From the NCBI GenBank assembly GCA_018669975.1, contig JABHSK010000002.1, positions 73,293-137,292 of the forward strand: a stretch of 64,000 nt of DNA, given 5' to 3'. Position 1 is the first letter of the stretch. Every line of letters starts with the position of its first letter. This document shows, piece after piece, positions 3,676 through 58,031 of the stretch. A program made the translations under genes and the position numbers. The notes under the pieces were generated by a model. It ran no database searches and had not been told where the DNA came from. It saw only the letters and a list, made by a program, of their open reading frames with translations. This stretch comes from Candidatus Parcubacteria bacterium. GTDB taxonomy: Bacteria > Patescibacteriota > Patescibacteriia > UBA1558 > GWA2-36-10.

Positions 3676-4702
3676 TTTTACGACGATTCTCTAATATATA
3701 TATCCAATATTTGCTAGAAGCAATAATTAAGGCTAAATAAAATGGTACAGCAAAAATAACTTCTATCGGCACAGAAGTAAAGGGAAGAGTATAGCCAGAA
3801 AAATTAGCCACTGTACTAGGACCATACACTCGATATTGACTGGCTATCAACCAAGCTTCTATCGGTGTAGTGATTATACCTGCTACCAATAAATAGGCTA
3901 TAAACTTTTCTATTAGGTTAAAATGCACTAAAAATTTATCCACGAAACCAATTGCCAACCATATGATTATAATCCAAATACCAGACATCAAAATGCTAAC
4001 GTCTCTATAAAAATATGACCATGCAGGCAAATTAGCATTGAGAACCATAGGTTCAATCATAATTTCAAAAAATATTACTGCTAGCAAAACAATCAACAAT
4101 TCCCTACCCCACTTAATCTTTTTCATTGGGATAAGCAATTTCTTGTCGATTACTAGACTCCAATATTTATAAAATCCAATAACTAAAGTCATAAATACTG
4201 GGATATAGTAAAAAGAACTCCATGGAATATTAAACCACGGCACAAAATGATCTTTGATAACCTCTAAAGACTCCGGCGCGTAAGCTCTAATCCCTAAACC
4301 CACCACTGCTTTTTCTGCCCATAAAGCTATAATAAATACGAACAATAAATAAAGCAGAAACTTATGCCATTCTTTAAAATGGACTAAATATTTATCTATC
4401 AAAACTACTGGCACTAAAATAATTGTTGACCAACCAATGGTTAGCACCCAAGATACATCACGATAGACATAGGCCAATTCTCCCAATCTAAAATTATGCC
4501 ACATCGGTGCTGTAAAGAATTCAAAAATAAAAACGCCTAATGCAATAATGGCGAATCTTAAAAAAATCTTGTCTGTAATTTTTGATAAAAAGAATAAAGA
4601 TGCTGCAGCCATGACAAAGATAAATACCTCAAAATAAATTATCGGCATAGTGGCAACCTTGTCAAAGTGACAAGCAGCTGAGCTACAAGGTTGAAAAATC
4701 AT
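3647..4702 (-). CDS. polytopic membrane protein with internal tandem duplication
   Basis: Two homologous halves (YRDVSWVLTIGWSTIILVPVVLIDKYLVHF and YRDVSILMSGIWIIIIWLAIGFVDKFLVHF). At least 8 predicted TM helices. Confidence 0.5.
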   Translation of the reverse strand: MIFQPCSSAACHFDKVATMPIIYFEVFIFVMAAASLFFLSKITDKIFLRFAIIALGVFIFEFFTAPMWHNFRLGELAYVYRDVSWVLTIGWSTIILVPVVLIDKYLVHFKEWHKFLLYLLFVFIIALWAEKAVVGLGIRAYAPESLEVIKDHFVPWFNIPWSSFYYIPVFMTLVIGFYKYWSLVIDKKLLIPMKKIKWGRELLIVLLAVIFFEIMIEPMVLNANLPAWSYFYRDVSILMSGIWIIIIWLAIGFVDKFLVHFNLIEKFIAYLLVAGIITTPIEAWLIASQYRVYGPSTVANFSGYTLPFTSVPIEVIFAVPFYLALIIASSKYWIYILENRRKNDSSIKNNA

Positions 4703-4752
4703 AGTTCTTTAATAAGTTATTTAACTATATGTAATATTATAGCACTAAAATA

Positions 4753-5916
4753 TTAGTGTTCACAAGAACAACCTGAACAACCACTCTGTTTTTTATCTGA
4801 AGCATTTAAAAATTCTGAATCCTTCATTTTACAACCCTGCCAGGTAGCCTGGGAAAAATGTGGATGCGTAGACAATTCATCCCAAATTTTATATAGCGGT
4901 TTCTGTAAAATATTTCCAAAACCAGCATGGTTAAAATCACAAGGAGAAATATCACCATATGGTGATGCATAAAAATAACTAGTACCCCCTGAACAACCAG
5001 TGCTACGATAGCTGGTAGCATAGGCATAGATTAAAACTCCCGGATAACTTTTATCTTTATTATATTTTTTACTAAATGTTATCATCTCCTCTATCCAGGC
5101 TCGATTATCTATCAAATCATCACGACTTTTGGCGCGACCGACTGGTACCATGTCAAAAACAAGCACTTCATGCACGCCCAGCTCCTGGCCCAACTCAATT
5201 ATTGCTTTAAGTCGACCGCTACGGAAATCATCTTCACTAATAGTGCACGATAAACCAACCGTTAAGCCAGCTTTTTTAGCTGCTTGTATACCAGCTAGTG
5301 CTTTATCAAAGAGCCCATCCTTGCGTCGCCTTTTATCATGTTCCTCACGATTAGCTGAATCCATAGAGATATAAACTCCATCTAAGCCAGACTGCTTCAA
5401 CTGCTCAGCTTTTTCTTCCAAAAACCATCCGTTAGTAAATAAAATAGCAATTGATAAATCTTTATCAATGCTAGAAACTATTTCTGGTAAATCATCCCTA
5501 AGCAAAGGCTCGCCACCAACTATATTGATAACTGACACACCTAATTCTTGAGCATCCTCTATTAGCTTCTTACTTTGATCTAGGGTCAAAATTTGCCTAC
5601 TCCTATCATCTGCTGATTCAAAGAAACTACAGTGCTCACAATTAACATTACAAGTGTCATTAACTGCAAAGCTCATTAAATTGGGGAAATTACGATTTTG
5701 AATAGTAGAAAAAACTGACCTAGAAAATAAATTAACAGCTGGTTTACTATAAACTGCTGGCGTAGAAAGAGAATACACTGGGTAACCATCACGCCAATGA
5801 ACAACCTTATTATGATTGAGGTAAATTTTATAAACTCGCTCAAAAAAATCTATTGAATATTGAATTGATCTAGTAGAAATAAACCATTTGAATCTAAACT
5901 TGGAAAAAATACTCAT
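4753..5916 (-). CDS. radical SAM enzyme with C-terminal SPASM/twitch-like Cys-rich domain
   Basis: CNVNCEHC (CxxxCxxC) radical-SAM cluster motif, a NIVGGEPLL glycine-rich motif, and a C-terminal C-x12-G-x4-C segment (CSGGTSYFYASPYGDISPC) followed by a CSGCSCEH Cys cluster. Confidence 0.8.
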   Translation of the reverse strand: MSIFSKFRFKWFISTRSIQYSIDFFERVYKIYLNHNKVVHWRDGYPVYSLSTPAVYSKPAVNLFSRSVFSTIQNRNFPNLMSFAVNDTCNVNCEHCSFFESADDRSRQILTLDQSKKLIEDAQELGVSVINIVGGEPLLRDDLPEIVSSIDKDLSIAILFTNGWFLEEKAEQLKQSGLDGVYISMDSANREEHDKRRRKDGLFDKALAGIQAAKKAGLTVGLSCTISEDDFRSGRLKAIIELGQELGVHEVLVFDMVPVGRAKSRDDLIDNRAWIEEMITFSKKYNKDKSYPGVLIYAYATSYRSTGCSGGTSYFYASPYGDISPCDFNHAGFGNILQKPLYKIWDELSTHPHFSQATWQGCKMKDSEFLNASDKKQSGCSGCSCEH

Positions 5917-5935
5917 ATTGAATTATAATTAATAT

Positions 5936-6484
5936 ATGTTAATTAAAGAAATAATATTTTTTATTACACCGCTATTATTAGCTGGTCTAATCCATCACTT
6001 ATTTGTTATTAAATTTGATCTGGTCAAACAACTTGCAAGACCTATTGATAATAACCTATTTTTAGGTGGGCAGCAATTATTCGGTCAGTCAAAGACTTGG
6101 CGTGGCATTATTGTTATGACTGCCTTATCCGGTCTTTTTTACTACTACTTGTCATACTGGATTAATATTGAGACAAATTACCCAGCCCTTATATCTGGGA
6201 TGCTCATAGGCCTCGGCTATGCTCTGGGTGAATTGCCAAACAGCTTTATAAAACGCCGTCTCCATATAGGTGCTAGTCAATCAAATTATAAGGGTTTTAA
6301 AAAAATATTTTATCTTATCGATCAGGTTGATTCTGTAGTCGGTGCTTTAATATTATTATATGTTGTCTACCAGCCATCAATAAACCTGGTGCTATCAATA
6401 TTAATAATTAGTTCTTTACTGCATTTATTAATAGACAGTTATCTGCATAAATTCAGCTACAAAAAATCAAACAATATACAATAA
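5936..6484 (+). CDS. small integral membrane CTP-transferase-superfamily protein (CarS/CdsA-like)
   Basis: About 180 aa with 5 TM helices and a GQSKTWRG motif resembling the KTW(E/R)G motif of CdsA/CarS-type cytidylyltransferases. Only plus-strand gene in this cluster. Weak assignment. Confidence 0.4.
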   Translation: MLIKEIIFFITPLLLAGLIHHLFVIKFDLVKQLARPIDNNLFLGGQQLFGQSKTWRGIIVMTALSGLFYYYLSYWINIETNYPALISGMLIGLGYALGELPNSFIKRRLHIGASQSNYKGFKKIFYLIDQVDSVVGALILLYVVYQPSINLVLSILIISSLLHLLIDSYLHKFSYKKSNNIQ

Positions 6485-7117
6485 ATAATAAATAGCCGCG
6501 CCAGCAGACACTGGTACCACCAAATTATCCAAACCTTTACCAAATAAACCTTCTAAGAAGCTAACCAATAAAGCAGCTATTATTGCGAAAACGAAATCTA
6601 ATGCAGATAATTGACCCTTAACAAACCAGACTACTCCCAATAATACCAACAATGTCACTATAAAAAACAAAACACTGCCCAGCCATGTTTTTTCTCCAGT
6701 GAGATTGTATTTTTTTTGTCCAAATTTATAACCAATCACGCCAGCCAAACCATCGGCTAACGCTAAAATCAAAACCGCGCCCTGAAAAATGATAGCCTTA
6801 ATTGGCACAAAAGTAACAAAAGTAACTGTCAGTCCAAGTGGAAACAAAACCGCGCCCGAACTATGCCCGTTTATTTTATGAACACTGTCTAATAATTTCT
6901 GCCTTTTTATAATTAATAAAAATAAAGCGAAAAAAATACCAATAACCACTGCCATTGGTACTCCAAACCAAACTGGTAACAACAAAGAGACAAAACCACC
7001 GCCAATATGAGCAATCTTTCTAGAATACTCTGTCCGCATACCCCGACGATAAAAAAACTCACCTGTCAAAAATACAGCTACATACAAAATTAAAATTATA
7101 ATTAAATGCCAAATCAT
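6467..7117 (-). CDS. polyprenol (dolichol/phytol) kinase-like CTP-dependent membrane kinase (CdsA/DolK superfamily)
   Basis: YRRGMRTEYSRKIAHIGGG, GEKTWLGS, ALADGLAGVIGYKFG and C-terminal LEGLFGKGLDNLVVPV motifs, as in the DolK/VTE5 family. Polytopic. Confidence 0.55.
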   Translation of the reverse strand: MIWHLIIILILYVAVFLTGEFFYRRGMRTEYSRKIAHIGGGFVSLLLPVWFGVPMAVVIGIFFALFLLIIKRQKLLDSVHKINGHSSGAVLFPLGLTVTFVTFVPIKAIIFQGAVLILALADGLAGVIGYKFGQKKYNLTGEKTWLGSVLFFIVTLLVLLGVVWFVKGQLSALDFVFAIIAALLVSFLEGLFGKGLDNLVVPVSAGAAIYYLLYIV

Positions 7118-8130
7118 ATTTGTTTTTGATAAGCCCGATAATACCTATAAATATCTGCACCCTTAGTCAAATTCAAGATGCCTTGATTATCTTCACGCAT
7201 AGTAGAAAATATAAATTCCTTAACGTTCTGCTTTTTAGCTTGCTGATATACCCAATAAAACATAGCTTTGCCAATAGCCTGCCCCTGAAATTTACTGCCG
7301 ACTGCAAAGGTTTTAATTATAACTCTATCTGAATCACTTACATCTGCAACAGCAAAACAAAAAGCAGCAGCACATTTTTTCTTATCTAACACCAAACAAC
7401 TAAAAGGCAGGGTTGATGTTCTATCTAAATCTTTATAATAATGGGCAAACTCTTCTAAGCTAATTTTAGCAAATGACCAGGAATCTACAAATACCTCGCT
7501 AATCATCTGAAATATAGCTTGCAAACTAGCCTGATAATTTTTCTCATTAATGTGCTCAAAAACAAATCCATTGGCCACTACCTCCGAAAAATCTTGAGCA
7601 AAATTAGTAAAACCGCAATCTTTCAATGAAGATATAGTAGAAACATTTTGCTGAGCTATTTCAAAATTTGCGTTTTCAAATAAATCTTTATAATAGGCCC
7701 TACAAAATGGCTCTAGAGAAAAAGGCTGTCTGTCTTCAGGAAATGACACTCGCCAATTTTGCCAAGTAGTTAAATTAATCGGCCCACGTAAAATTTTTCT
7801 ACCCAGTTGTCGTGCGTGCTCCGATATAGCGTCAAAAATTTTATCTGCGTAGACTTGATTATTTTTAGACTCAAAACAACCTAGTAAGGCCAATTCTGCT
7901 GGCAAACGAGAGTCTGTAATAACCGCTGCGTGAGCCACTGGCTTGCCCTGATCCAACAACAAAAAATTATCTACAGAACCAAAATTAAAAAAGGGATTAC
8001 TAATATTATTAATCTTTCTAGCCTCCTCTACCTTTGTCCTTGCGACATCTGGATAGTCCCGATAAATATCTACAATCAGATCACTATAATCGCTAAGCAA
8101 GCCGTCAATTTTGTAATTAATGACTTCCAT
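7114..8130 (-). CDS. GNAT-family N-acetyltransferase domain protein (C-terminal) with unknown N-terminal domain
   Basis: C-terminal VIIKTFAVGSKFQGQAIGKAMFYWVYQQA (Q/RxxGxG/A acetyl-CoA motif). The N-terminal ~190 aa are unassigned. Confidence 0.5.
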   Translation of the reverse strand: MEVINYKIDGLLSDYSDLIVDIYRDYPDVARTKVEEARKINNISNPFFNFGSVDNFLLLDQGKPVAHAAVITDSRLPAELALLGCFESKNNQVYADKIFDAISEHARQLGRKILRGPINLTTWQNWRVSFPEDRQPFSLEPFCRAYYKDLFENANFEIAQQNVSTISSLKDCGFTNFAQDFSEVVANGFVFEHINEKNYQASLQAIFQMISEVFVDSWSFAKISLEEFAHYYKDLDRTSTLPFSCLVLDKKKCAAAFCFAVADVSDSDRVIIKTFAVGSKFQGQAIGKAMFYWVYQQAKKQNVKEFIFSTMREDNQGILNLTKGADIYRYYRAYQKQI

Positions 8131-16638: not shown

Positions 16639-16779
16639 AATATCTAATTAATTATTATTTACTATAAGTACATTAAGGTTAACATCTTTAGACTATATGG
16701 CAAACCCTTGACACAATTTTTTATGCATGCTAACGTCAAATGTTTACAATTGAATATCTTTCAATGAAGCAATGAACGA

Positions 16780-16833
16780 CTATCTATATTTGGACGCTTG
16801 GATAGTCGGGAGCTAGTAGCGTAACCGGCATTG
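16780..16833 (+). ncRNA. copy 1 of a tandemly duplicated ~55-nt element (candidate small RNA / cis-regulatory leader)
   Basis: ctatctatatttggacgcttggatagtcgggagctagtagcgtaaccggcattg, followed at 16850-16880 by a terminator-like hairpin (cacca...tggtg plus T-run). Confidence 0.35.
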
Positions 16834-16930
16834 AGTATTTTTATACTCTCACCAAAAACGCCTAGCCAAATGGTGTTTTTTGTAAATAAAAGCCCTTTTT
16901 ACAACACAAAATATTCGATGAGACAAAGAA

Positions 16931-16987
16931 CTATAGTCTATATTTGGACGCTTGGATTATAGGGAGTCAGTAGCGTAACCGGCATTG
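16931..16987 (+). ncRNA. copy 2 of the tandemly duplicated ~55-nt element
   Basis: ctatagtctatatttggacgcttggattatagggagtcagtagcgtaaccggcattg (about 90% identical to copy 1), followed at 17008-17042 by the hairpin acgtctca-gattaa-tgaggcgt plus T-run. Confidence 0.35.
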
Positions 16988-17139
16988 TTTTTTGCTGTGT
17001 TTAAAATTGGCCAAAAACGTCTCAGATTAATGAGGCGTTTTTGTTTCTCATAAAATGCTTTAGTCAGTAAAGACCCAATAATATTCATGCTCTACCTGGA
17101 TAACCTAGGTAGAAAACCATACCCTCAGGAGGTAAAATC

Positions 17140-17862
17140 ATGAAGCGTTTCTTTATCCTCACCCTAGTCCTCGTCACCAGCATCGTCTTTGTTGGTTGCG
17201 ATCAGAGTGATCCGATCAGTGTGACTGTCCCTGACCTTGACGAAACTGGCCCGTCTATCACTGCTGACGAAGTTCATACTGAATTCCTGACTGAGCTTTA
17301 TGCTAATCAGGATTTTGCCAAGATGAACAAGTCGGCTCAGTCCCATGATGCTACCAGGGCTGCCAATGATATTTTGGCTCGCTATGGCGAGGCTCCGATG
17401 ACCGAAAAGCAGGTCGCTGATGCTATTGAAGAAGGTCGTCGTATGGCCAAGATGGATCCCGAAGCACTGATCGCTAGCATCCTTGATGCTGACGACCTTG
17501 TCTGGTGGCACCGCTTTGCTGATGAAGCTACCGCTCAGAATTGCCGCCAGATCTACACGGCTCACTGCCGTAGCTATGGTGCTCCCGTTGCTGGTAGCAC
17601 TCTCGATACCATGATTGGCGTGGCTATGTCTTCAGGTGAATTCTGGGGCGAATATCGCAAGAATGACATGCCTCGCTATCACAATCCCTATGTGCCCCAG
17701 CAGGGCGAAAAGGGTTGGAGAGGATTCTTCCGCTTTGTCGTGGCTGTGGCTGTTGACGGTGGCGCCGGTGCTGCTTCGGCTGCCGGTGGACCGATTGTTT
17801 CGGGTGTTGTTGGTGGTCTGGCCAGCACTGGTGCTGATCATATCATCTTTGGTGGTGACTGA
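17140..17862 (+). CDS. lipoprotein with Gly-rich C-terminal tail (GC-richer, likely horizontally acquired)
   Basis: Lipobox LVTSIVFVGC. C-terminal GGAGAASAAGGPIVSGVVGGLASTGADHIIFGGD. Strong GGAGG Shine-Dalgarno. Codon composition visibly GC-richer than the flanks. Confidence 0.5.
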   Translation: MKRFFILTLVLVTSIVFVGCDQSDPISVTVPDLDETGPSITADEVHTEFLTELYANQDFAKMNKSAQSHDATRAANDILARYGEAPMTEKQVADAIEEGRRMAKMDPEALIASILDADDLVWWHRFADEATAQNCRQIYTAHCRSYGAPVAGSTLDTMIGVAMSSGEFWGEYRKNDMPRYHNPYVPQQGEKGWRGFFRFVVAVAVDGGAGAASAAGGPIVSGVVGGLASTGADHIIFGGD

Positions 17863-26876: not shown

Positions 26877-26883
26877 ATTTTTA

Positions 26884-26938
26884 TTTTAATAACATGTTTA
26901 GTATACCAAAAAATCACTCCTAATGGAATGATCTTTTT
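26884..26938. repeat. array element copy 3
   Basis: ttttaataacatgtttagtataccaaaaaatcactcctaatggaatgatcttttt. Confidence 0.5.
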
Positions 26939-35179: not shown

Positions 35180-35282
35180 GTTATTTTAATAACATTCTCA
35201 GTATAACAAAAAACCATTCCTTTTGGAATGATTCTTTGACTGGGATCCTCTATGGGGTACTTTCAGAACTTTTTTAGTGGAG
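35180..35282. repeat. array element copy 11 (full-length)
   Basis: aatgttattttaataacattctcagtataacaaaaaaccattccttttggaatgattctttgactgggatcctctatggggtactttcagaacttttttagtggag. Confidence 0.6.
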
Positions 35283-40182: not shown

Positions 40183-40303
40183 TTATTTTAATAACACTTT
40201 AAGTATATCAAAAAATCACTCCTTTTGGAATGATTCTGTCGTGTTATAAACCTATTGGTCTGGGGGTCCCCTATAGGGGACTTTCGGAACCTTTTTAGTG
40301 GAG
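40183..40303. repeat. array element copy 15 (with ~25-nt internal insertion)
   Basis: ttttaataacactttaagtatatcaaaaaatcactccttttggaatgattctgtcgtgttataaacctattggtctgggggtcccctataggggactttcggaacctttttagtggag. Confidence 0.55.
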
Positions 40304-40930: not shown

Positions 40931-41040
40931 AATTTATATTTTAATAACATGGCCCAGGCCACCCTCCCTGGCTTCGCCATTCACCTTGTCTTCATTATAT
41001 CACAAAACAAAAAACGAGCTAGGATTAGCTCATTCTTTGA
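40931..41040. repeat. array element copy 16 (GC-rich 5' block plus ctagcta-type hairpin), abutting tRNA-His
   Basis: ttttaataacatggcccaggccaccctccctggcttcgccattcaccttgtcttcattatatcacaaaacaaaaaacgagctaggattagctcattctttga, after which the tRNA-His gene follows directly. Confidence 0.55.
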
Positions 41041-52041: not shown

Positions 52042-52662
52042 TCAGATACCGATAACAGCTTCGATATTGCCATCGTTGATGACCACTGACTTGAGTACTG
52101 CCTTAGCAGCTTTTTGCTTGATATCAGAAGTATTCAAAGTGTAGACAGGCAGGGTGTCCAAACCAAAGTAAATGATTTTTCCCAAAGCCCCGGCGACTTT
52201 GTCACACTTGGACTTACTTAGCCCACCGATGGTCAAACTCTCAATCTCAGAGTTTACCAGGTAGAAGCTACCCTTACTGGGAACGTACTCCAGTTCCGCC
52301 GACATCATTAAATCACCCGAATAGGTATCGCGTAAAAACTCGATCTCGGTATTGAGACCAAAAGTAATTCGCTCCGAACCGGCCGTCAACAGAACTGTAG
52401 GATTACTGAAGTCTGCCTTAATCAGGCGATTCTCCTTGTGCATGGGAAATTTTCCCACCATCTTGTCTTCGATTTGCTGCTGAGTGATAGTAATAGTCTT
52501 GGTCCACAGCGATTTACCGCCACAACCAACCAGGGATAGAGAGAAAACAATCAACAAACACAAACACACAACTTTCTTCATCTTTTTCACCTTTCTGACT
52601 TGAGTTTGAAAATGAACAGGAATAAATGGAACGACAAAGAAAATTATCATAAACACGTCCAC
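52042..52662 (-). CDS. lipoprotein (GC-richer island)
   Basis: Lipobox LSLVGCGG. The likely true start is the internal MKKVVCL (around 52590). Composition visibly GC-richer than the rest of the window. Confidence 0.5.
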   Translation of the reverse strand: MDVFMIIFFVVPFIPVHFQTQVRKVKKMKKVVCLCLLIVFSLSLVGCGGKSLWTKTITITQQQIEDKMVGKFPMHKENRLIKADFSNPTVLLTAGSERITFGLNTEIEFLRDTYSGDLMMSAELEYVPSKGSFYLVNSEIESLTIGGLSKSKCDKVAGALGKIIYFGLDTLPVYTLNTSDIKQKAAKAVLKSVVINDGNIEAVIGI

Positions 52663-53088
52663 ATGTCAAACCTGCTTAAATCAAAAAAGCTCAAGGTTGA
52701 TGAACCCGAGCTCCTTTGATTGTCTGTTAAAATATATTATGTTATGGAGAATCCTTGTTTTGATTATCTCCTAGTTCCTTTGTGTTTTGCTGTTCGTTTT
52801 TTATTACCATCAAATCATCTGGCGGAGCTGTTTGTATCTCATGCTCTGGTTGCTCCATTATTTGACGATCTTTTTTCGAAAATCCCAACAATTTTCCAAA
52901 AAATGACATATATAAAATTTTAATGATCTTGTATCCATCAGAGGATGGATGATTTTTTGACATATTGATCCCCCTAACAATATATCGTGTATGGTGCCCA
53001 ACTAAAGAGCACCAAAATGTAGATTGTTTTATTCATTTGTATTTTTATTTTTATTTTTTCACTAACGCAAACATCTTGACGCTTCTTA

Positions 53089-53208
53089 TTAGCTAACTAG
53101 AAAGACTAGTGCTAAAAGATAAAGAGCAAGTACCGACCAGTTTTCCGAGCTTTCCACTCTGGGATTGCAATGAAAACCGGATAATTTAAAAGATTTTACT
53201 TCATTCAT
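53089..53208 (-). CDS. unannotated 39-aa hydrophobic peptide (below ORF-track size cutoff)
   Basis: My translation gives MNEVKSFKLSGFHCNPRVESSENWSVLALYLLALVFLVS. Tandem paralog of the next peptide. Confidence 0.3.
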   Translation of the reverse strand: MNEVKSFKLSGFHCNPRVESSENWSVLALYLLALVFLVS

Positions 53209-53223
53209 AAATTTAATTAATAA

Positions 53224-53370
53224 TTAAAGACTAGTACCTACTAGCAATAGTAAGCCAAAGGAGCCAATAGCAACTAGGCCTATTATCGCCCAGTAGTCAC
53301 TGTTGCGCAATTTTTTGTCCCCTGGCTTGATAATTAATTTAAAAGATTCTACTTCGCTTGTTTTAAACAT
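53224..53370 (-). CDS. unannotated 48-aa hydrophobic peptide (below ORF-track size cutoff)
   Basis: My translation gives MFKTSEVESFKLIIKPGDKKLRNSDYWAIIGLVAIGSFGLLLLVGTSL. Shares the EV-SFKL N-terminal motif and a hydrophobic tail with the upstream peptide. Confidence 0.3.
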   Translation of the reverse strand: MFKTSEVESFKLIIKPGDKKLRNSDYWAIIGLVAIGSFGLLLLVGTSL

Positions 53371-53637
53371 ATTAAACTTCAGGCCTATTACTTATTAGCT
53401 TGGAAGGTTTTTTGCAAGTTTTATGTTTATTTTTATTTTTGGGGCTTAACTTAACCGCTTATTACAAAAAAACGGTTATAAACAAAAAAAATCGGTGTTT
53501 ACCTGGGATGGTTTCCCAAATAATTAACACCAATTTCAACTTACATATACATAATAGCATGAAAAAACACTTTTGTCAACCAAAAAGAAAAAGGAGCAAC
53601 CGTAGCTGCTCCTTTTTCACGCGAATGATTAATTGGT

Positions 53638-54753
53638 TCAGGACTTCTGAGCCTGGCTCATGTCGTACCGAATCCTGCGGCAACGATGCAACCCCATCTT
53701 ATACCACGGGCACTTCTTGTAAGTGCACTGAGCATTACTAGCACAGTGTTCCGGTAAGCATTTAGGGTTGACTGCAATGGTAATCGCCGCCTTGATCTGG
53801 TCCAGAGAGATCCGAGTCGGAGACACATCCGGAGCGGACAGACTACCGTTGAGAAGCATCTGCCCCTCATGGTGGAAATACCATTCCTCAGCACCTTCGA
53901 TTTTACCTTCGGCCCTCAACTGAGCCCAATCGGTAGTCACTACCTTATCGGCGAGAGCTTGCTCTTCCAGACGCAACATCTGTGCCAGATCGTACAACTG
54001 CAGCCCATGCCGCTTGTTGCTAAAAATCTGTACGTTCCCAGTGGAACGCTTCTGCACTACGATAGCCGCATCCAGGCCAGACTTGTTACGAGCAGCTTTG
54101 GAGACATGCTCACTATCCGATTCGATGATAACCATCTTGTGTTGCTGAGTACCAGCCATGATGGTCAGAACCTCGGCGTTTTCCAGTGCGATCTGGGCAT
54201 CGACAAAGCCTTTCTGCTCCAAATATTTGACATCGAGAGCAGCCATGGCCCACGTCATGACCTTCTCCGGATCATCCGGATAAAACTCATGCATGGCCTT
54301 GGAGATAGCCGAAATGTCGAAAGGATGGCTAGTGCCATGAAGATCGTTGGTCAAGGTAAACTTGAGAATCTTGACCAGAATAGGATCCTGGTCGATGCCT
54401 AAGTCCTTGGCTACCAAAGTGGCAGCACAATCTCCCTGTTTGCTTTTGTCGCCATTGCGACCGTGTTCGTCGAAACGACCACCGCCGGTACCGACCAGCA
54501 AATAACCTTCAGCCTCATAACCTTCAGCCGAACGACCATCAGGCGCATTACCGCCATTGGTCCAGTACTCGATCGCGGCTTCTGCCACACCCGGGTACTT
54601 GTCTGCACCAAACTTGATCAGTAGCCAGATGGCTACGATCTCGTCCAGATGCGGACGCACATGCGTAGCAATCGCTCTGATTTGCTGACTCATAACAGTC
54701 CTCCTTTTTTGAACCGTTTTTCCAAAACCTAAGTTTTGGAGGTTTTCTAACAA
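53638..54753 (-). CDS. MYG1/UPF0160-like metal-dependent hydrolase with Cys-rich C-terminus (GC-richer island)
   Basis: ATHVRPHLDEIVAIWLL resembles the MYG1 THxGxFHxDE...LL motif. GTGGGRFDEHG resembles the MYG1 GG-YD-HH segment. C-terminal CLPEHCASNAQCTYKKCPWYKMGLHRC. Tentative. Confidence 0.35.
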   Translation of the reverse strand: MLENLQNLGFGKTVQKRRTVMSQQIRAIATHVRPHLDEIVAIWLLIKFGADKYPGVAEAAIEYWTNGGNAPDGRSAEGYEAEGYLLVGTGGGRFDEHGRNGDKSKQGDCAATLVAKDLGIDQDPILVKILKFTLTNDLHGTSHPFDISAISKAMHEFYPDDPEKVMTWAMAALDVKYLEQKGFVDAQIALENAEVLTIMAGTQQHKMVIIESDSEHVSKAARNKSGLDAAIVVQKRSTGNVQIFSNKRHGLQLYDLAQMLRLEEQALADKVVTTDWAQLRAEGKIEGAEEWYFHHEGQMLLNGSLSAPDVSPTRISLDQIKAAITIAVNPKCLPEHCASNAQCTYKKCPWYKMGLHRCRRIRYDMSQAQKS

Positions 54754-54939: not shown

Positions 54940-55155
54940 ATGAAAATCGAAGTTGCTAGAGAACTTTGCACCAGTGTCGCTACCTGTATAGCTGTAGCCC
55001 CTGGTACTTTTGAACTCGACGATGAAGGCATTGCCATCATCAAAGACATTAAAGGAGACGATGAAAAAACCATTCTCCAGGCTGCCCAAAGCTGCCCGGT
55101 AAATGCTATTATCCTCTATGATGATAATGGTAAGCAAATACATCCTCCTAAATAA
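54940..55155 (+). CDS. small ferredoxin
   Basis: CTSVATCIAVAP...SCPVNAI cluster-binding pattern. 71 aa. Confidence 0.7.
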   Translation: MKIEVARELCTSVATCIAVAPGTFELDDEGIAIIKDIKGDDEKTILQAAQSCPVNAIILYDDNGKQIHPPK

Positions 55156-55160
55156 TACCT

Positions 55161-56402
55161 ATGCCAAAAAATATATATTTGGACTATGCGTCCACCACAC
55201 CTGTTGATCCACAGGTGTTAAAATCTATGCAGCCATACTGGACGGAGAATTTTGGTAATCCATCCAGTCTTTATCGATTGGGTCGTATCAGTGCTCAAGC
55301 TATTCAGGACGCAAGACAAAAAGCAGCCAAAGCACTAAATTGCCAGCCAGAAGAAATAATCTTTACTGGCTCTGGTACTAGTAGTATAAACTTGGCTCTC
55401 AAGGGTCTAATTGCTAGCAAAGAAAAAATTCATTTAATAACTTCTGCAATTGAACATCACGCTGTACTTGATACTGCTGAATATTTGCATAAGCAAGGAC
55501 ATGAAGTATCCATTCTACCAGTAGACGCTGAAGGTTTGGTTCGTCTAGATGATTTACAAAAAACTATCACTGATAAAACTGAACTCGTCAGTATCATGAT
55601 GGCTAATAATGAAATCGGCACCCTACAGCCCATTCGTGCCATTGGTACTTGGTTGGAAAAAATAAATAAAGAGCGTGTTAAAAAAAATCTACCAAAAATA
55701 TATTTTCATACCGATGCCTGCCAAGCAGCTGGCGCACTTGATTTGGATGTTAAAAAACTTCACGTCGACATGTTAACTATCAATGGTAGTAAAATCTATG
55801 GTCCAAAAGGCACGGGACTACTTTATAGTAAACGCGGCACCCACCTATCTTCATTAATACACGGTGGCGGTCAAGAAAAAAACCTACTTTCAGGCACAGA
55901 AAATGTTCCTGGCATAGTTGGCTTAGCCGCTGCTCTAGAACTAGCTGCTAAAAATAGTGTTAAAGAATCCGCTCGTCTGAGTAAACTACGTGACTGGTTA
56001 ATTAAAGAAATTTTAGAAAAAATATCAAAGACTCGACTCAATGGTCATATTAGTCAACGACTACCAAATAACATTAATATAGCCTTTTTAGATATAGAAG
56101 GTGAGGCTATGTTACTTCATTTAGATGAAGTAGGTATTCAAGCTTCCACTGGCTCAGCTTGCACCTCTGCTACCCTAGAACCCTCTCATGTTATCCGAGC
56201 ACTAGGCTGTCCCTATGAAGTAGCACATGGATCAATGCGTTTTAGCTTGGGCAAACACACAACTAAGAAAGATTTAGAATATTTAGTCAGTAAATTACCA
56301 AATATAGTAGACAAATTACGCCATGCTTCTCCAGTTAAGATAGATATGAAAGAAGTAGAGAAATCAGTCAAAAACGCTCCCCGAGAAATCACTAATTTAT
56401 AA
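55161..56402 (+). CDS. cysteine desulfurase (NifS/IscS class V aminotransferase)
   Basis: PLP-Lys region INGSKIYGPKGTGLLY, catalytic-Cys loop STGSACTS, 413 aa. Confidence 0.85.
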   Translation: MPKNIYLDYASTTPVDPQVLKSMQPYWTENFGNPSSLYRLGRISAQAIQDARQKAAKALNCQPEEIIFTGSGTSSINLALKGLIASKEKIHLITSAIEHHAVLDTAEYLHKQGHEVSILPVDAEGLVRLDDLQKTITDKTELVSIMMANNEIGTLQPIRAIGTWLEKINKERVKKNLPKIYFHTDACQAAGALDLDVKKLHVDMLTINGSKIYGPKGTGLLYSKRGTHLSSLIHGGGQEKNLLSGTENVPGIVGLAAALELAAKNSVKESARLSKLRDWLIKEILEKISKTRLNGHISQRLPNNINIAFLDIEGEAMLLHLDEVGIQASTGSACTSATLEPSHVIRALGCPYEVAHGSMRFSLGKHTTKKDLEYLVSKLPNIVDKLRHASPVKIDMKEVEKSVKNAPREITNL

Positions 56403-56420
56403 TTAATATAATTTATATAT

Positions 56421-57104
56421 ATGCCTAATTCAAAACCAAAGAAAAAGAAAACAACGGTAGCTGCCGATGTTGATATTGTACCTAAAGGCACCAGTGATAA
56501 CTGGGCGTATACTGGCACTGTTAAAGATCACTTCTTTAATCCTAGAAATCTAGTTATAGATGTTTCTAAAATGAAAGGATATGATGGTCTAGGCATGGTC
56601 GGCTCACCAGCTTGTGGTGATATGATGAAAATATGGGTAAAAGTAGATAAAAAAACTGACAAAATCAAAGAAATGAAGTGGCAAACATTTGGTTGTGGTT
56701 CAGCTATTGCCGCTACTTCCATGCTGTCTGTTATGGTGACTGAAAAAGGTGGTATGAAAATAGACAAAGCTCTATCCGTCAAACCACAGGACATTACCAA
56801 GCGACTAGGTGATTTACCAACCAGAAAAATTCACTGCTCTGTTTTAGGAGACAAAGCCCTGCGCTCTGCTGTTAATAATTATTTTATAAAGTCAGGACAA
56901 AAAGACCGCGTAGTTAAAGAACAGGTCCGCATCATCGACAGAGAAGCCAAGGTAACTGATCATGATATCGAGGAAGCAGTTCTAGAGGGTGCTCATACTT
57001 TAGAAGCAGTTCAAAAAAAGACTAAAGTTGGCGTCGGTAATCCGGAGGTCATACCAGAAGTCGAGCAGTTAATTAGATTCTACACTGAAAAATATTTTGG
57101 TTAA
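56421..57104 (+). CDS. NifU/IscU-type Fe-S cluster scaffold with C-terminal extension
   Basis: GSPACGDMMKIWVKV ... WQTFGCGSAIAATS ... KIHCSVLGDKAL (three conserved Cys). Confidence 0.8.
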   Translation: MPNSKPKKKKTTVAADVDIVPKGTSDNWAYTGTVKDHFFNPRNLVIDVSKMKGYDGLGMVGSPACGDMMKIWVKVDKKTDKIKEMKWQTFGCGSAIAATSMLSVMVTEKGGMKIDKALSVKPQDITKRLGDLPTRKIHCSVLGDKALRSAVNNYFIKSGQKDRVVKEQVRIIDREAKVTDHDIEEAVLEGAHTLEAVQKKTKVGVGNPEVIPEVEQLIRFYTEKYFG

Positions 57105-57131
57105 GATATACACAGTTAAATATCAAAGATA

Positions 57132-58031
57132 ATGAACAGAGACGTCATCATAATCATGGAAGGCGGCACTATTCAGGGTGTTTTTAGCGCCGGAGTAGCC
57201 GCAATATTACAAAAAGAAAATTTATACCCCCGCATAGATTCTATTTATGCAGTTTCCTCAGGCGCACATAACGCTGCTTATTTTTTATCTCGTAAAATAG
57301 ATGTTGGGGCTAGTATATACCATGACTACCTACTCAAAAGACATTCTTTTCTTAAACATTTGTCATTTAAAGTTATACTTAAAAAAATCCTACAGTTATT
57401 TTTCCTGGGACGTAGCTTTGATGTTATTGATCTGGCTTATATCGAAGATCTAGAAAGGGACATCTTGCCCTTGGATCTAAAAAGGATTAATGAGACTCCA
57501 ATTAAATTTTTTGTCAGGGTATTTAATCCTAAAACTAGGAAAATAGAATACCTAGACGCTAAAACTAATACCATTGAAAAGATAATCCAGTCTGCCAAAG
57601 TCCCACCTTATGCCTTTTCACGAACCCATAAAGACTTATATTTTGATGGTGGCATCATGCCTACTAAAAGTTTTCTCAATGATATAGTCAAAAAAAATCC
57701 TGACAAAAAAATCATCTACATATTTTGTGACAAAAAAACTTTTCGCCGCGTCACAAGATATATTATGGCTGACTTACTAGATGTGCTTTTCAAAACTAGA
57801 TACCTGGGTATACGCTACGGACTCAAGCACCTCTTTAATATCTACAACTACACCTATGTAAGTAATCTCAAAAAATACCCCAACGTTATCACTGTTTATG
57901 ATAGCACTGGTAATTCCAAACGAGAGAAGAAAAAACAAAAGATTTTGGATGCCTACGAACATGGCGTTAGTCGAGGTAAATATGTTTTAGAAAAACTAAG
58001 AGAATTAGATCAAAAACAAAAAGAGAGCTAG
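57132..58031 (+). CDS. patatin-like phospholipase-related protein (divergent)
   Basis: MEGGTIQGVFSAGV oxyanion-like segment, AVSSGAHNA (imperfect GxSxG) and DGGIMPT (DGG). Confidence 0.45.
   Translation: MNRDVIIIMEGGTIQGVFSAGVAAILQKENLYPRIDSIYAVSSGAHNAAYFLSRKIDVGASIYHDYLLKRHSFLKHLSFKVILKKILQLFFLGRSFDVIDLAYIEDLERDILPLDLKRINETPIKFFVRVFNPKTRKIEYLDAKTNTIEKIIQSAKVPPYAFSRTHKDLYFDGGIMPTKSFLNDIVKKNPDKKIIYIFCDKKTFRRVTRYIMADLLDVLFKTRYLGIRYGLKHLFNIYNYTYVSNLKKYPNVITVYDSTGNSKREKKKQKILDAYEHGVSRGKYVLEKLRELDQKQKES

Follow-up and report, generated by a model that had tools for sequence, protein, structure and literature searches.

What does a bacterium encode in a stretch of DNA in which no long open reading frame (ORF) can be found? 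This question is raised by a 975-nucleotide (nt) gap with a G+C content of 33% in contig JABHSK010000002.1, which belongs to the metagenome-assembled genome (MAG) of a Candidatus Parcubacteria bacterium. The whole stretch of DNA that was analysed, referred to here as the window, comprises 64,000 nt (positions 73,293 to 137,292 of the contig). A first-pass annotation had placed two tandem hydrophobic mini-proteins, here named A and B, in the gap. It had to be clarified whether such short frames are genes, to which unit they belong, and what their products might do. We conclude with high confidence that they are real, conserved genes for membrane micro-proteins and that they are part of an operon of four cistrons. 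The overall explanation, which we favour with moderate confidence, is that of tail-anchored micro-proteins, for which a role in redox, stress or metal homeostasis is proposed tentatively.

ORF A (53224..53370, minus strand; 48 amino acids (aa), MFKTSEVESFKLIIKPGDKKLRNSDYWAIIGLVAIGSFGLLLLVGTSL) is the first cistron and ORF B (53089..53208, minus strand; 39 aa, MNEVKSFKLSGFHCNPRVESSENWSVLALYLLALVFLVS) the second; B starts 15 nt past the stop codon of A. Both are contained in the mechanical ORF list, and the translations made by hand in the first-pass annotation are identical to the listed ones. The common E-V-x-SFKL motif was also confirmed and is backed by a 21-nt DNA repeat of 95% identity (repeat family D2). 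The Trp residue noticed in each protein is present and opens the apolar segment in both. A similar upstream sequence had been claimed for A and B as well; the 25 nt before each ORF are, however, alike in AT-richness only. A 22-nt A-rich tract does occur twice; one copy lies ~50 nt before A, and the other immediately precedes a third frame, ORF C, and not B. Both frames had been described as missed by the ORF track. For public annotation this is wrong in the case of A, which is recorded at NCBI as hypothetical protein HOB10_01845 (MBT6691057.1) of the 'Candidatus Parcubacteria bacterium' MAG and was also annotated by the Joint Genome Institute (JGI) in two metagenomes. It is right for B: no public record of its exact sequence was found. 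A 74%-identical 39-aa variant of B, P0003, was called on nine contigs. HOB10_01840, the NCBI locus tag adjacent to that of A, corresponds to a fourth frame, ORF D, and B and C are unannotated in the NCBI record of the source genome.

The length of these ORFs is uninformative, because chance ORFs are common in such a sequence: at least one ATG-initiated ORF of at least 39 aa occurred in 76% of the shuffles of the 975-nt gap, and at least two occurred in 38%. The case for coding therefore rests on conservation. Starting from the P0003 contigs, two further versions of the whole locus, L004 and L005, were found, each with ~80% DNA identity. All four frames are kept in these three variants (window, L004 and L005). 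For the comparison of the window with L004 and L005, ratios of nonsynonymous to synonymous substitution rates (dN/dS) were determined as Nei-Gojobori estimates. The values are 0.05–0.11 for A and 0.25–0.29 for B. Substitutions in A between the window and L005 are distributed over the three codon positions as 8/4/21, such that third positions dominate; in B, L004 and L005 differ by three synonymous and no nonsynonymous changes. Other variant pairs gave dN/dS values of 0.02–0.17 for A (seven pairs with finite dS) and of 0.07–0.25 for B. Altogether, the frames of A and B are kept across 17 sequence variants of the locus, with B gone in one of them. Conservation of the frames in relatives had been proposed as a check at the outset, and the frames are indeed intact and under purifying selection. 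The Ka/Ks value of the two copies, which had been proposed along with it, is meaningless at an A/B identity of 33%; orthologous comparisons were used instead. Judged by these substitution patterns, A and B are real protein-coding genes under purifying selection.

A locus alignment indicated that the DNA downstream of B is conserved at least as well as A and B. It holds two more ORFs. ORF C (52974..53036, minus strand; 20 aa, MNKTIYILVLFSWAPYTIYC) codes for an unannotated hydrophobic micro-peptide with the core ...LFSWAPYT..., which is essentially one short hydrophobic segment with a net charge of +1. It is the most conserved piece of the unit: the window and L005 differ by five synonymous and no nonsynonymous changes, and dN/dS is 0.04–0.73 in further variant pairs. 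ORF D (52742..52909, minus strand; 55 aa, MSFFGKLLGFSKKDRQIMEQPEHEIQTAPPDDLMVIKNEQQNTKELGDNQNKDSP) codes for an acidic, soluble-looking protein of the pattern MSFFGKLLGF...EQPEHEIQ..PPDDLMVIK...NKDSP, with a net charge of -3 and an amphipathic N-terminal 13-mer. Its dN/dS is 0.23–0.56 in further variant pairs. The NCBI annotation of D is this 55-aa form. A 73-aa reading of D from position 52963, preceded by a Shine-Dalgarno-like GGGGGA, was rejected: L005 has ATA in place of its ATG, and in L004 this ATG is not in frame.

The two genes initially described are thus real, and their scope has to be widened: four conserved micro-cistrons, headed by A and B, have a promoter, a leader and a terminator in common. 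The order A-B-C-D was found across the 17 variants, the exceptions being L035, which lacks B, and L015, which carries an insertion. A large gene for a secreted coiled-coil protein adjoins ORF D in L015 and L034. The one of L015 (665 aa, 5421..7418) is inserted between ORF C and ORF D; the one of L034 (839 aa, 5246..7765) follows D and encodes a DUF5667 domain. This indicates that the micro-operon can be split without loss of cistrons. No further paralogs of A to D were detected by tblastn in the 64-kb window, where the unit is single-copy.

A, B, C and D form one operon. They are co-oriented, tightly spaced, and located between one conserved promoter-plus-leader and one terminator. The near-consensus, sigma-70-type promoter (53551..53579, minus strand; TTGACAAAAGTGTTTTTTCATGCTATTAT) consists of a perfect TTGACA -35 element, a 17-nt spacer and an extended -10 element of the form TG-n-TATTAT. 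It scores 11/12 plus the TG, and no other strong promoter is present in the region. Its sequence occurs once in the window, compared to 0 occurrences expected by chance. The motif TTGACAAA..TTTTTT..TGCTAnnAT, spacer included, was found upstream of the operon in 15 of 15 loci examined. The spacer, conserved in the window and 14 loci, is partly palindromic, with ACAAAAGCGTTTTTTTGT in most lineages; it could be a candidate operator for a dimeric regulator. A further copy of the promoter or leader motif, which would be a sign of a regulon, was not found elsewhere in the window, where the motif occurs once.

Downstream of the promoter lies a 5' leader (53484..53545, minus strand; -22.9 kcal/mol), which comprises a conserved single-stranded segment TGTAAGTT, a hairpin GAAATTGG...CCGATTT and a run of eight T. 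A hairpin and U-run equivalent to these are present in 11 variants that differ in their apical stems, and analysis with RNAalifold yielded compensatory double changes in five of the 12 consensus pairs. In L015, the U-run ends ~15 nt before the ATG of ORF A, which places the leader hairpin within the mRNA. There it might bring about attenuation or stabilise the transcript, and it could also give rise to a ~60-nt RNA. A second, small hairpin in the 5' untranslated region (5' UTR; 53453..53477, minus strand; AACCG-N15-CGGTT, -8.9 kcal/mol) is followed by the motif GCCCCAAAA. It is kept in L004 and L005, and L019 has an analogous hairpin plus GCCCCAAAA. Rfam, searched with the gathering threshold on the whole window and with E-values up to 10 on positions 52600–53700, returned nothing credible for the leader or the hairpins.

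The A-rich tract before ORF A (53419..53440, minus strand; AAAAATAAAAATAAACATAAAA) is a direct repeat (D1) and 91% identical to the tract that directly precedes ORF C (53037..53058, minus strand; AAAAATAAAAATAAAAATACAA). The latter is conserved in L004, L005, L013 and L015 and probably supports initiation independent of a Shine-Dalgarno sequence. Only three of the 54 long ORFs in the window have a Shine-Dalgarno-like motif, and none of the four cistrons has one. An extended -10-like motif, TGTTATTAAAAT, occurs in the window in 14 copies with at most one mismatch, compared to 2.6 expected. Examples are located at 26883..26894, 35183..35194, 40185..40196 and 40938..40949 (-), and several copies lie a few bases upstream of start codons. 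Taken together, the positions of these copies and the rarity of Shine-Dalgarno-like motifs suggest that mRNAs with very short leaders or without leaders may be the norm in the source genome.

Between C and D, a further hairpin (52933..52950, minus strand) has the sequence ATCCATC-CTCT-GATGGAT. A compensatory double change is seen in L005 (TCTATC/GATAGA), and L013 has at this site a different stem with a similar loop (CGACC-cact-GGTCG). The operon ends with an intrinsic terminator after D (52683..52712, minus strand; AGCTCGGGTT-CATC-AACCTTGAGC followed by six T, -21.4 kcal/mol). It is found at the same position in L004 and L013, and the stem changes in L004 and L005 preserve pairing. After this terminator, a new promoter (52643..52669) serves the downstream DUF1439 gene. 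On the other side, the upstream 371-aa gene has its own terminator at 53587..53618.

For an estimate of how widely the unit occurs, a profile hidden Markov model (HMM) of A and B was used in an exhaustive search of 1.84 billion representative proteins. It yielded seven mini-proteins of 39–63 aa, the A protein of the window included, all of which carry the family signature described below; the contigs encoding them have the same A-B-C-D order. Three long repetitive proteins from this search were discarded as false positives. A degenerate DNA pattern for the ORF-C sequence I-L-x-L-F-S-W-A-P-Y was used to scan GTDB contigs (one genome per species) and JGI metagenomes. The arrangement was present in five of five matched loci of the GTDB contigs. 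Among the nine matches in the JGI metagenomes, seven have the full arrangement, L025 runs into the contig edge within ORF C, and one was rejected as a chance match. A profile search with D resulted in 55 clusters at 90% identity, all of them hypothetical proteins without Pfam domains, and the three that were looked up carry the unit. The 90% cluster of the D protein from the window also lists proteins of 398–676 aa from Phytophthora fragariae, one of them as representative, which is almost certainly a clustering artefact and not homology.

In this way, 17 distinct locus variants were collected. Their organism labels are Parcubacteria, Nomurabacteria or 'Patescibacteria group' for all but one. 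The odd one, L019 (CAZEWH010000004.1, a 115.5-kb contig), is labelled as a MAG of an 'uncultured Gammaproteobacteria bacterium'. Its synteny is patatin, superoxide dismutase (SOD), NifU, NifS and ferredoxin, then A-B-C-D, then 2-oxoacid:ferredoxin oxidoreductase (OFOR), and its proteins are nearly identical to those of L029. Given this Parcubacteria-type synteny, an error in the binning or labelling of the contig is probable. As far as sequences are labelled, the unit was thus found in Patescibacteria/Parcubacteria-type bacteria only. Searches of Pfam, NCBIfam and PADLOC gave no significant match for A, B, C or D, and no Pfam match was obtained for any member of the A, B and D alignments. Sequence searches of the PDB with the A, B and D profiles returned hydrophobic-helix noise only, the best match being a reaction-centre L chain with an E-value of 0.077. 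A full-text search of the literature on small proteins of the Candidate Phyla Radiation (CPR) and Patescibacteria retrieved no description of the operon. With neither a description nor a database family to be found, the A/B family is best regarded as new. The structural class of small single-helix, tail-anchored membrane proteins is already well known.

The paralogy of A and B, which had been proposed at the outset, is borne out by two kinds of comparison. The best non-self tblastn match of B in the whole window is A (E=0.03), and alignment of the A and B family profiles with hhalign gave a probability of 95.4% and an E-value of 1.8e-8 over 33 columns. A and B are therefore true paralogs. The signature of the family consists of an N-terminal x-[KEQ]-S-F-[KRHQ]-[LM] motif, ~12 variable residues, an acidic-x-Trp junction and one hydrophobic helix that extends to the C-terminus. 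The junction is SDYW in A-type and E-[ST]-H-E-N-W in B-type proteins. The alignment of 21 A-type sequences follows the pattern x-SF[KR]L-x3-PGD-[KR]-KLR-[NS]-SDYWAI-x2-LCA-x-G-[AS]-...-G-x-S-I and ends with G-x-S-[IL]; the A protein of the window carries LRNSDYWAI before the transmembrane helix. In this alignment, F10, Y26 and W27 are invariant, and S9, L21, I29 and the in-helix cysteine C33 are conserved to at least 90%. The 16 B-type sequences follow x-[KEQ]-SF[KRHQ]L-x-G-F-[YH]-C-[ND]-P-x-[VI]-E-[ST]-[HC]-E-N-W-x-[VIL]-L-x-L-[FY]-L..., which leads into a short apolar tail. In six variants, B has a Lys/Cys-rich N-terminal extension of the form CxxC...CxC. One clade possesses two A genes, the first of which contains the SFxL motif twice within one chain; the same duplication is found in the A protein of L015.

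Both proteins begin with 23–25 polar or charged residues, and an apolar run then continues to the last residue; this pattern is common to 37 family members. The uncharged C-terminal run comprises 23 residues in A and 16 in B. The net charge is +2 for A, whose N-terminal part accounts for +2, and 0 for B. AlphaFold2 predicts one long C-terminal helix each, spanning residues 21–46 of A and 16–38 of B, with values of the predicted local distance difference test (pLDDT) of 71–86 in this region. Together, apolar runs and structure prediction bear out the single C-terminal hydrophobic helix that had been proposed for both. No N-terminal signal sequence is present and the only hydrophobic helix is located at the extreme C-terminus, as in C-tail-anchored proteins. 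A and B are best read as C-tail-anchored membrane micro-proteins, a class assigned here by prediction. Because a signal peptide is lacking, the N-terminal parts are positively charged or rich in Lys and Cys, and the C-terminal ends carry no charge, the predicted orientation of A and B has the N-terminus on the cytoplasmic side and the C-terminus on the outer side. In this orientation, SF[KR]L would be exposed to the cytoplasm, where it may be a short motif for docking; a modular binding role would fit the fact that single chains of some lineages contain it twice.

The neighbourhood of the operon is the source of the functional proposal. In the window, genes for patatin, NifU, NifS and a 71-aa ferredoxin are located on the plus strand (54940..58031). 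On the minus strand follow the 371-aa gene (53638..54753), which lies upstream of the operon, then A-B-C-D, the downstream gene of a DUF1439 lipoprotein (52042..52662), the genes for OFOR alpha and beta, a 271-aa gene and the gene of a 1430-aa Big_13 protein. A divergent operon that encodes ferredoxin (with or without peroxiredoxin), NifS, NifU, SOD, and patatin or peroxiredoxin is kept in 16 of the 17 variants. The usual downstream genes are those of OFOR alpha and beta, in some cases preceded by GrpB. In L015, L034 and L035, the first gene of the divergent operon encodes a Fur-family regulator and adjoins the micro-operon; in the clade of L018 and L022, a TrpR-like gene takes this position. 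L015 furthermore contains a perfect 7-1-7 Fur-type box, TGATAATTATTATCA, at ~4860..4900 in the shared divergent intergenic region, between the Fur-family gene at 4433..4852 (-) and the operon promoter at 4905 (+).

The 371-aa and DUF1439 genes were considered as parts of the system and rejected. The 371-aa gene is missing at this position in L013, L014, L019, L021, L029 and L033, the DUF1439 gene in L013, L019, L021 and L033, and the former is of foreign composition (51% G+C compared to 35.5% for the window). Both are lineage-specific insertions. Situated between the ferredoxin operon and the micro-operon, the 371-aa gene looks like a foreign gene that was inserted recently; its product has a Cys-rich C-terminus and no match in Pfam, NCBIfam, PADLOC or the PDB.

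What could a tail-anchored micro-protein operon do in this setting? A and B might, together with C and D, form or regulate a small membrane-associated complex, or they might act on a larger membrane protein; D could lie on the membrane with its amphipathic N-terminus. A membrane-level role in redox, oxidative-stress or metal homeostasis would fit the neighbourhood of ferredoxin, Fe-S, SOD, peroxiredoxin and Fur genes as well as the Cys, His and Glu features of the proteins. Taken for itself, a specific redox or stress role, as deduced from synteny, is a tentative proposal. A known parallel is offered by the ElaB family of E. coli (ElaB, YqjD and YgaM), whose members are ~100 aa long. ElaB is a C-tail-anchored inner-membrane protein that is induced by oxidative stress via OxyR and RpoS and maintains membrane integrity (PMC6389858). 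Like A and B, these proteins lack a signal peptide and have an N-terminal part in the cytoplasm (as is predicted for A and B) and one C-terminal helix, and by analogy the role of ElaB in oxidative stress may parallel the ferredoxin/SOD/peroxiredoxin/Fur neighbourhood of the micro-operon. In contrast to the ElaB family, A and B have no DUF883 homology according to Pfam and NCBIfam, and the micro-operon encodes several products of 20–55 aa in a dedicated unit.

A more specific version of this idea is rather unlikely, namely that the four products make up a Parcubacteria-specific membrane micro-complex of a ferredoxin/Fe-S assembly/oxygen-defence regulon. Such a complex would consist of two or three tail-anchored peptides with the SF[KR]L motif, together with the LFSWAPY peptide and the acidic protein that has the NKxSP motif. 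At the membrane, it could tether or gate the flow of electrons that depends on ferredoxin, or act as a sensor of redox or metal status. Candidates for functional residues would be the conserved E-x-H-E-x-W junction, the cysteine in the transmembrane helix of A and the CxxC...CxC extensions found in B. An operon that consists solely of genes for small single-helix subunits is psbEFLJ of photosystem II. As in the micro-operon, several single-helix peptides of 20–60 aa are co-transcribed in a fixed order that is conserved within a lineage. In contrast to psbEFLJ, neither in the window nor in the fetched loci was a gene for a photosystem or an oxidase seen, and no sequence similarity was found. 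Small subunits of respiratory oxidases and photosystems have been reviewed (PMC12648545). A parent complex of the CydX, KdpF or Psb/Pet type was looked for in the operon and its flanks; no such genes are present and no significant Pfam or PDB match was obtained.

Several observations weigh against the favoured explanation. The apolar run of B is, with its 16 residues, short for spanning a bilayer. The overall pLDDT of the models is ~66, and the SFKL region is of low confidence. L035 has the arrangement A-C-D, which means that B is not indispensable. The link to redox functions comes from synteny, and the carriers may be fairly close relatives, such that the adjacency is possibly inherited gene order. 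The upstream neighbour is a different one in L032. No Fur box is located near the operon in the window, where three weak matches elsewhere are at chance level. Finally, in the clade of L018, L020 and L022, the downstream place of OFOR is taken by genes for a pilin-like protein of 280 aa and a Big_13 surface protein.

The last of these points leads to the serious rival. According to this reading, A and B serve a different membrane machine, as accessory subunits or as regulators; a transporter, the apparatus for pili or competence, and the machinery of cell division or of the envelope are examples. The adjacency to ferredoxin genes would then reflect inherited gene order without functional meaning. 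The evidence on coding, topology and operon structure fits this reading equally well, the pilin-like and Big_13 genes that replace OFOR in one clade would suit it, and the neighbours are not fixed: the 371-aa, DUF1439, GrpB and DUF5667 genes have been inserted around or inside the operon. In addition, the majority of the small membrane proteins characterised so far target a larger membrane protein encoded elsewhere, commonly by binding larger membrane complexes (PMC12648545). AcrZ, MgrB, MgtS and KdpF (PMC12648545) resemble A and B in having fewer than 50 aa, one transmembrane helix and no catalytic domain, and in being often unannotated. They are mostly single genes or encoded with their target, whereas A and B belong to a four-cistron unit of their own with no target alongside; no homology of A or B to these proteins was found. 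Against the rival stand the retention of the divergent ferredoxin operon in 16 of the 17 variants despite the insertions, and the Fur-family or TrpR-like genes in the shared intergenic region of several lineages. We regard it as possible, with a probability that is appreciable and clearly on the lower side.

The first-pass annotation had named type I toxins, bacteriocin-like peptides and small regulatory membrane peptides as options. The first two fit poorly, and the last is the class that is left over. As type I toxins (such as Hok, TisB, Fst or BsrG), A and/or B would depolarise the membrane, and the structured leader together with an antisense or trans-acting small RNA would restrain their translation. 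The size of less than 50 aa, the single hydrophobic helix and the long structured 5' UTR are indeed shared with such toxins. Their mRNAs are typically kept inactive through 5' structure and processing (PMC12648545), and the 62-nt leader with its terminator-like hairpin could be released as a small RNA. However, a type I system is defined by an RNA antitoxin, antisense or nearby and divergent, that pairs with the toxin mRNA (PMC12648545), and no candidate for it is present at the locus: a recurrent antisense sigma-70-like promoter was not found in the window, L004, L013 and L021, and the sole 11/12 promoter of each is in sense direction; a trans-encoded small RNA would be compatible with this result. 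Moreover, the 64-kb window holds just one copy of the unit, whose place in the chromosome is the same in 16 of the 17 variants, and an association with mobile elements is not seen. A conserved set of four cistrons transcribed together, with a soluble acidic protein among the products, is the wrong architecture for a toxin-antitoxin system, and strong purifying selection reaches the conserved N-terminal motif, which is predicted to be cytoplasmic and not part of the membrane segment. PADLOC gave no match. A type I toxin-antitoxin system is thus very improbable.

Slightly less probable still is a leaderless multi-peptide bacteriocin or another set of secreted peptides. Aureocin A70 (aurABCD) is a four-peptide and enterocin L50 (L50A/B) a two-peptide bacteriocin of this kind. 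A and B share with them that they are tandem paralogous peptides of 30–50 aa, hydrophobic and Trp-containing, which lack signal or double-glycine leaders. In contrast to these bacteriocins, no gene for an ATP-binding cassette (ABC) exporter, another transporter, immunity, processing or modification is located in or beside the operon at any locus. With net charges of +2, 0 and +1, A, B and C are not strongly cationic, and their apolar residues form a contiguous anchor segment and not an amphipathic one. Moreover, the conserved synteny and the core-genome-like distribution of the unit are not those of a strain-specific trait.

The least probable reading, that the frames are regulatory leader peptides or incidental to a structured non-coding RNA controlling the downstream oxidoreductase genes, could appeal to the conserved promoter-proximal terminator-like hairpin, to the further conserved hairpins of the transcript and to the frequency of chance ORFs of this length in AT-rich sequence, but it is contradicted by the third-position bias and dN/dS values far below 1 in many independent pairs, by amino-acid motifs that survive where synonymous sites are saturated, by the terminator and fresh promoter that part the operon from downstream genes varying by clade, and by the lack of an Rfam match.

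Apart from the micro-operon, the window contains tandem c-di-GMP-II riboswitch aptamers at 16756..16839 and 16910..16993 (+), with scores of 73 and 72 bits. They are located upstream of an ORF (17140..17862, +) that has no Pfam match and is one of the three long ORFs with a Shine-Dalgarno-like motif. The ~2 kb around the aptamers have a G+C content of 0.42, which is higher than that of the window.

CPR genomes are small and rich in genes of unknown function, and micro-proteins are routinely lost from their annotation. The present analysis provides four family signatures and an ORF-C search pattern; of the 14 loci that the pattern matched in two collections, 13 have the arrangement. The setting is unusual in that a lineage-restricted operon made up of micro-proteins only has its own conserved promoter and leader; it overturns no existing ideas. 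Products of exclusively 20–55 aa, a near-perfect promoter, purifying selection in all variants examined and a position next to ferredoxin, Fe-S and oxygen-defence genes suggest that the operon encodes an abundant, lineage-defining component of the cell. If its function were mundane, annotation would still be corrected and a clean case of a multi-micro-protein operon would be at hand. The redox hypothesis offers a testable idea on how redox conditions and stress may be handled at the membrane of bacteria that have minimal membranes and no respiratory chain. If the micro-complex reading were true, the operon would encode a membrane redox module composed of micro-proteins only, in organisms that are thought to live without respiratory chains.

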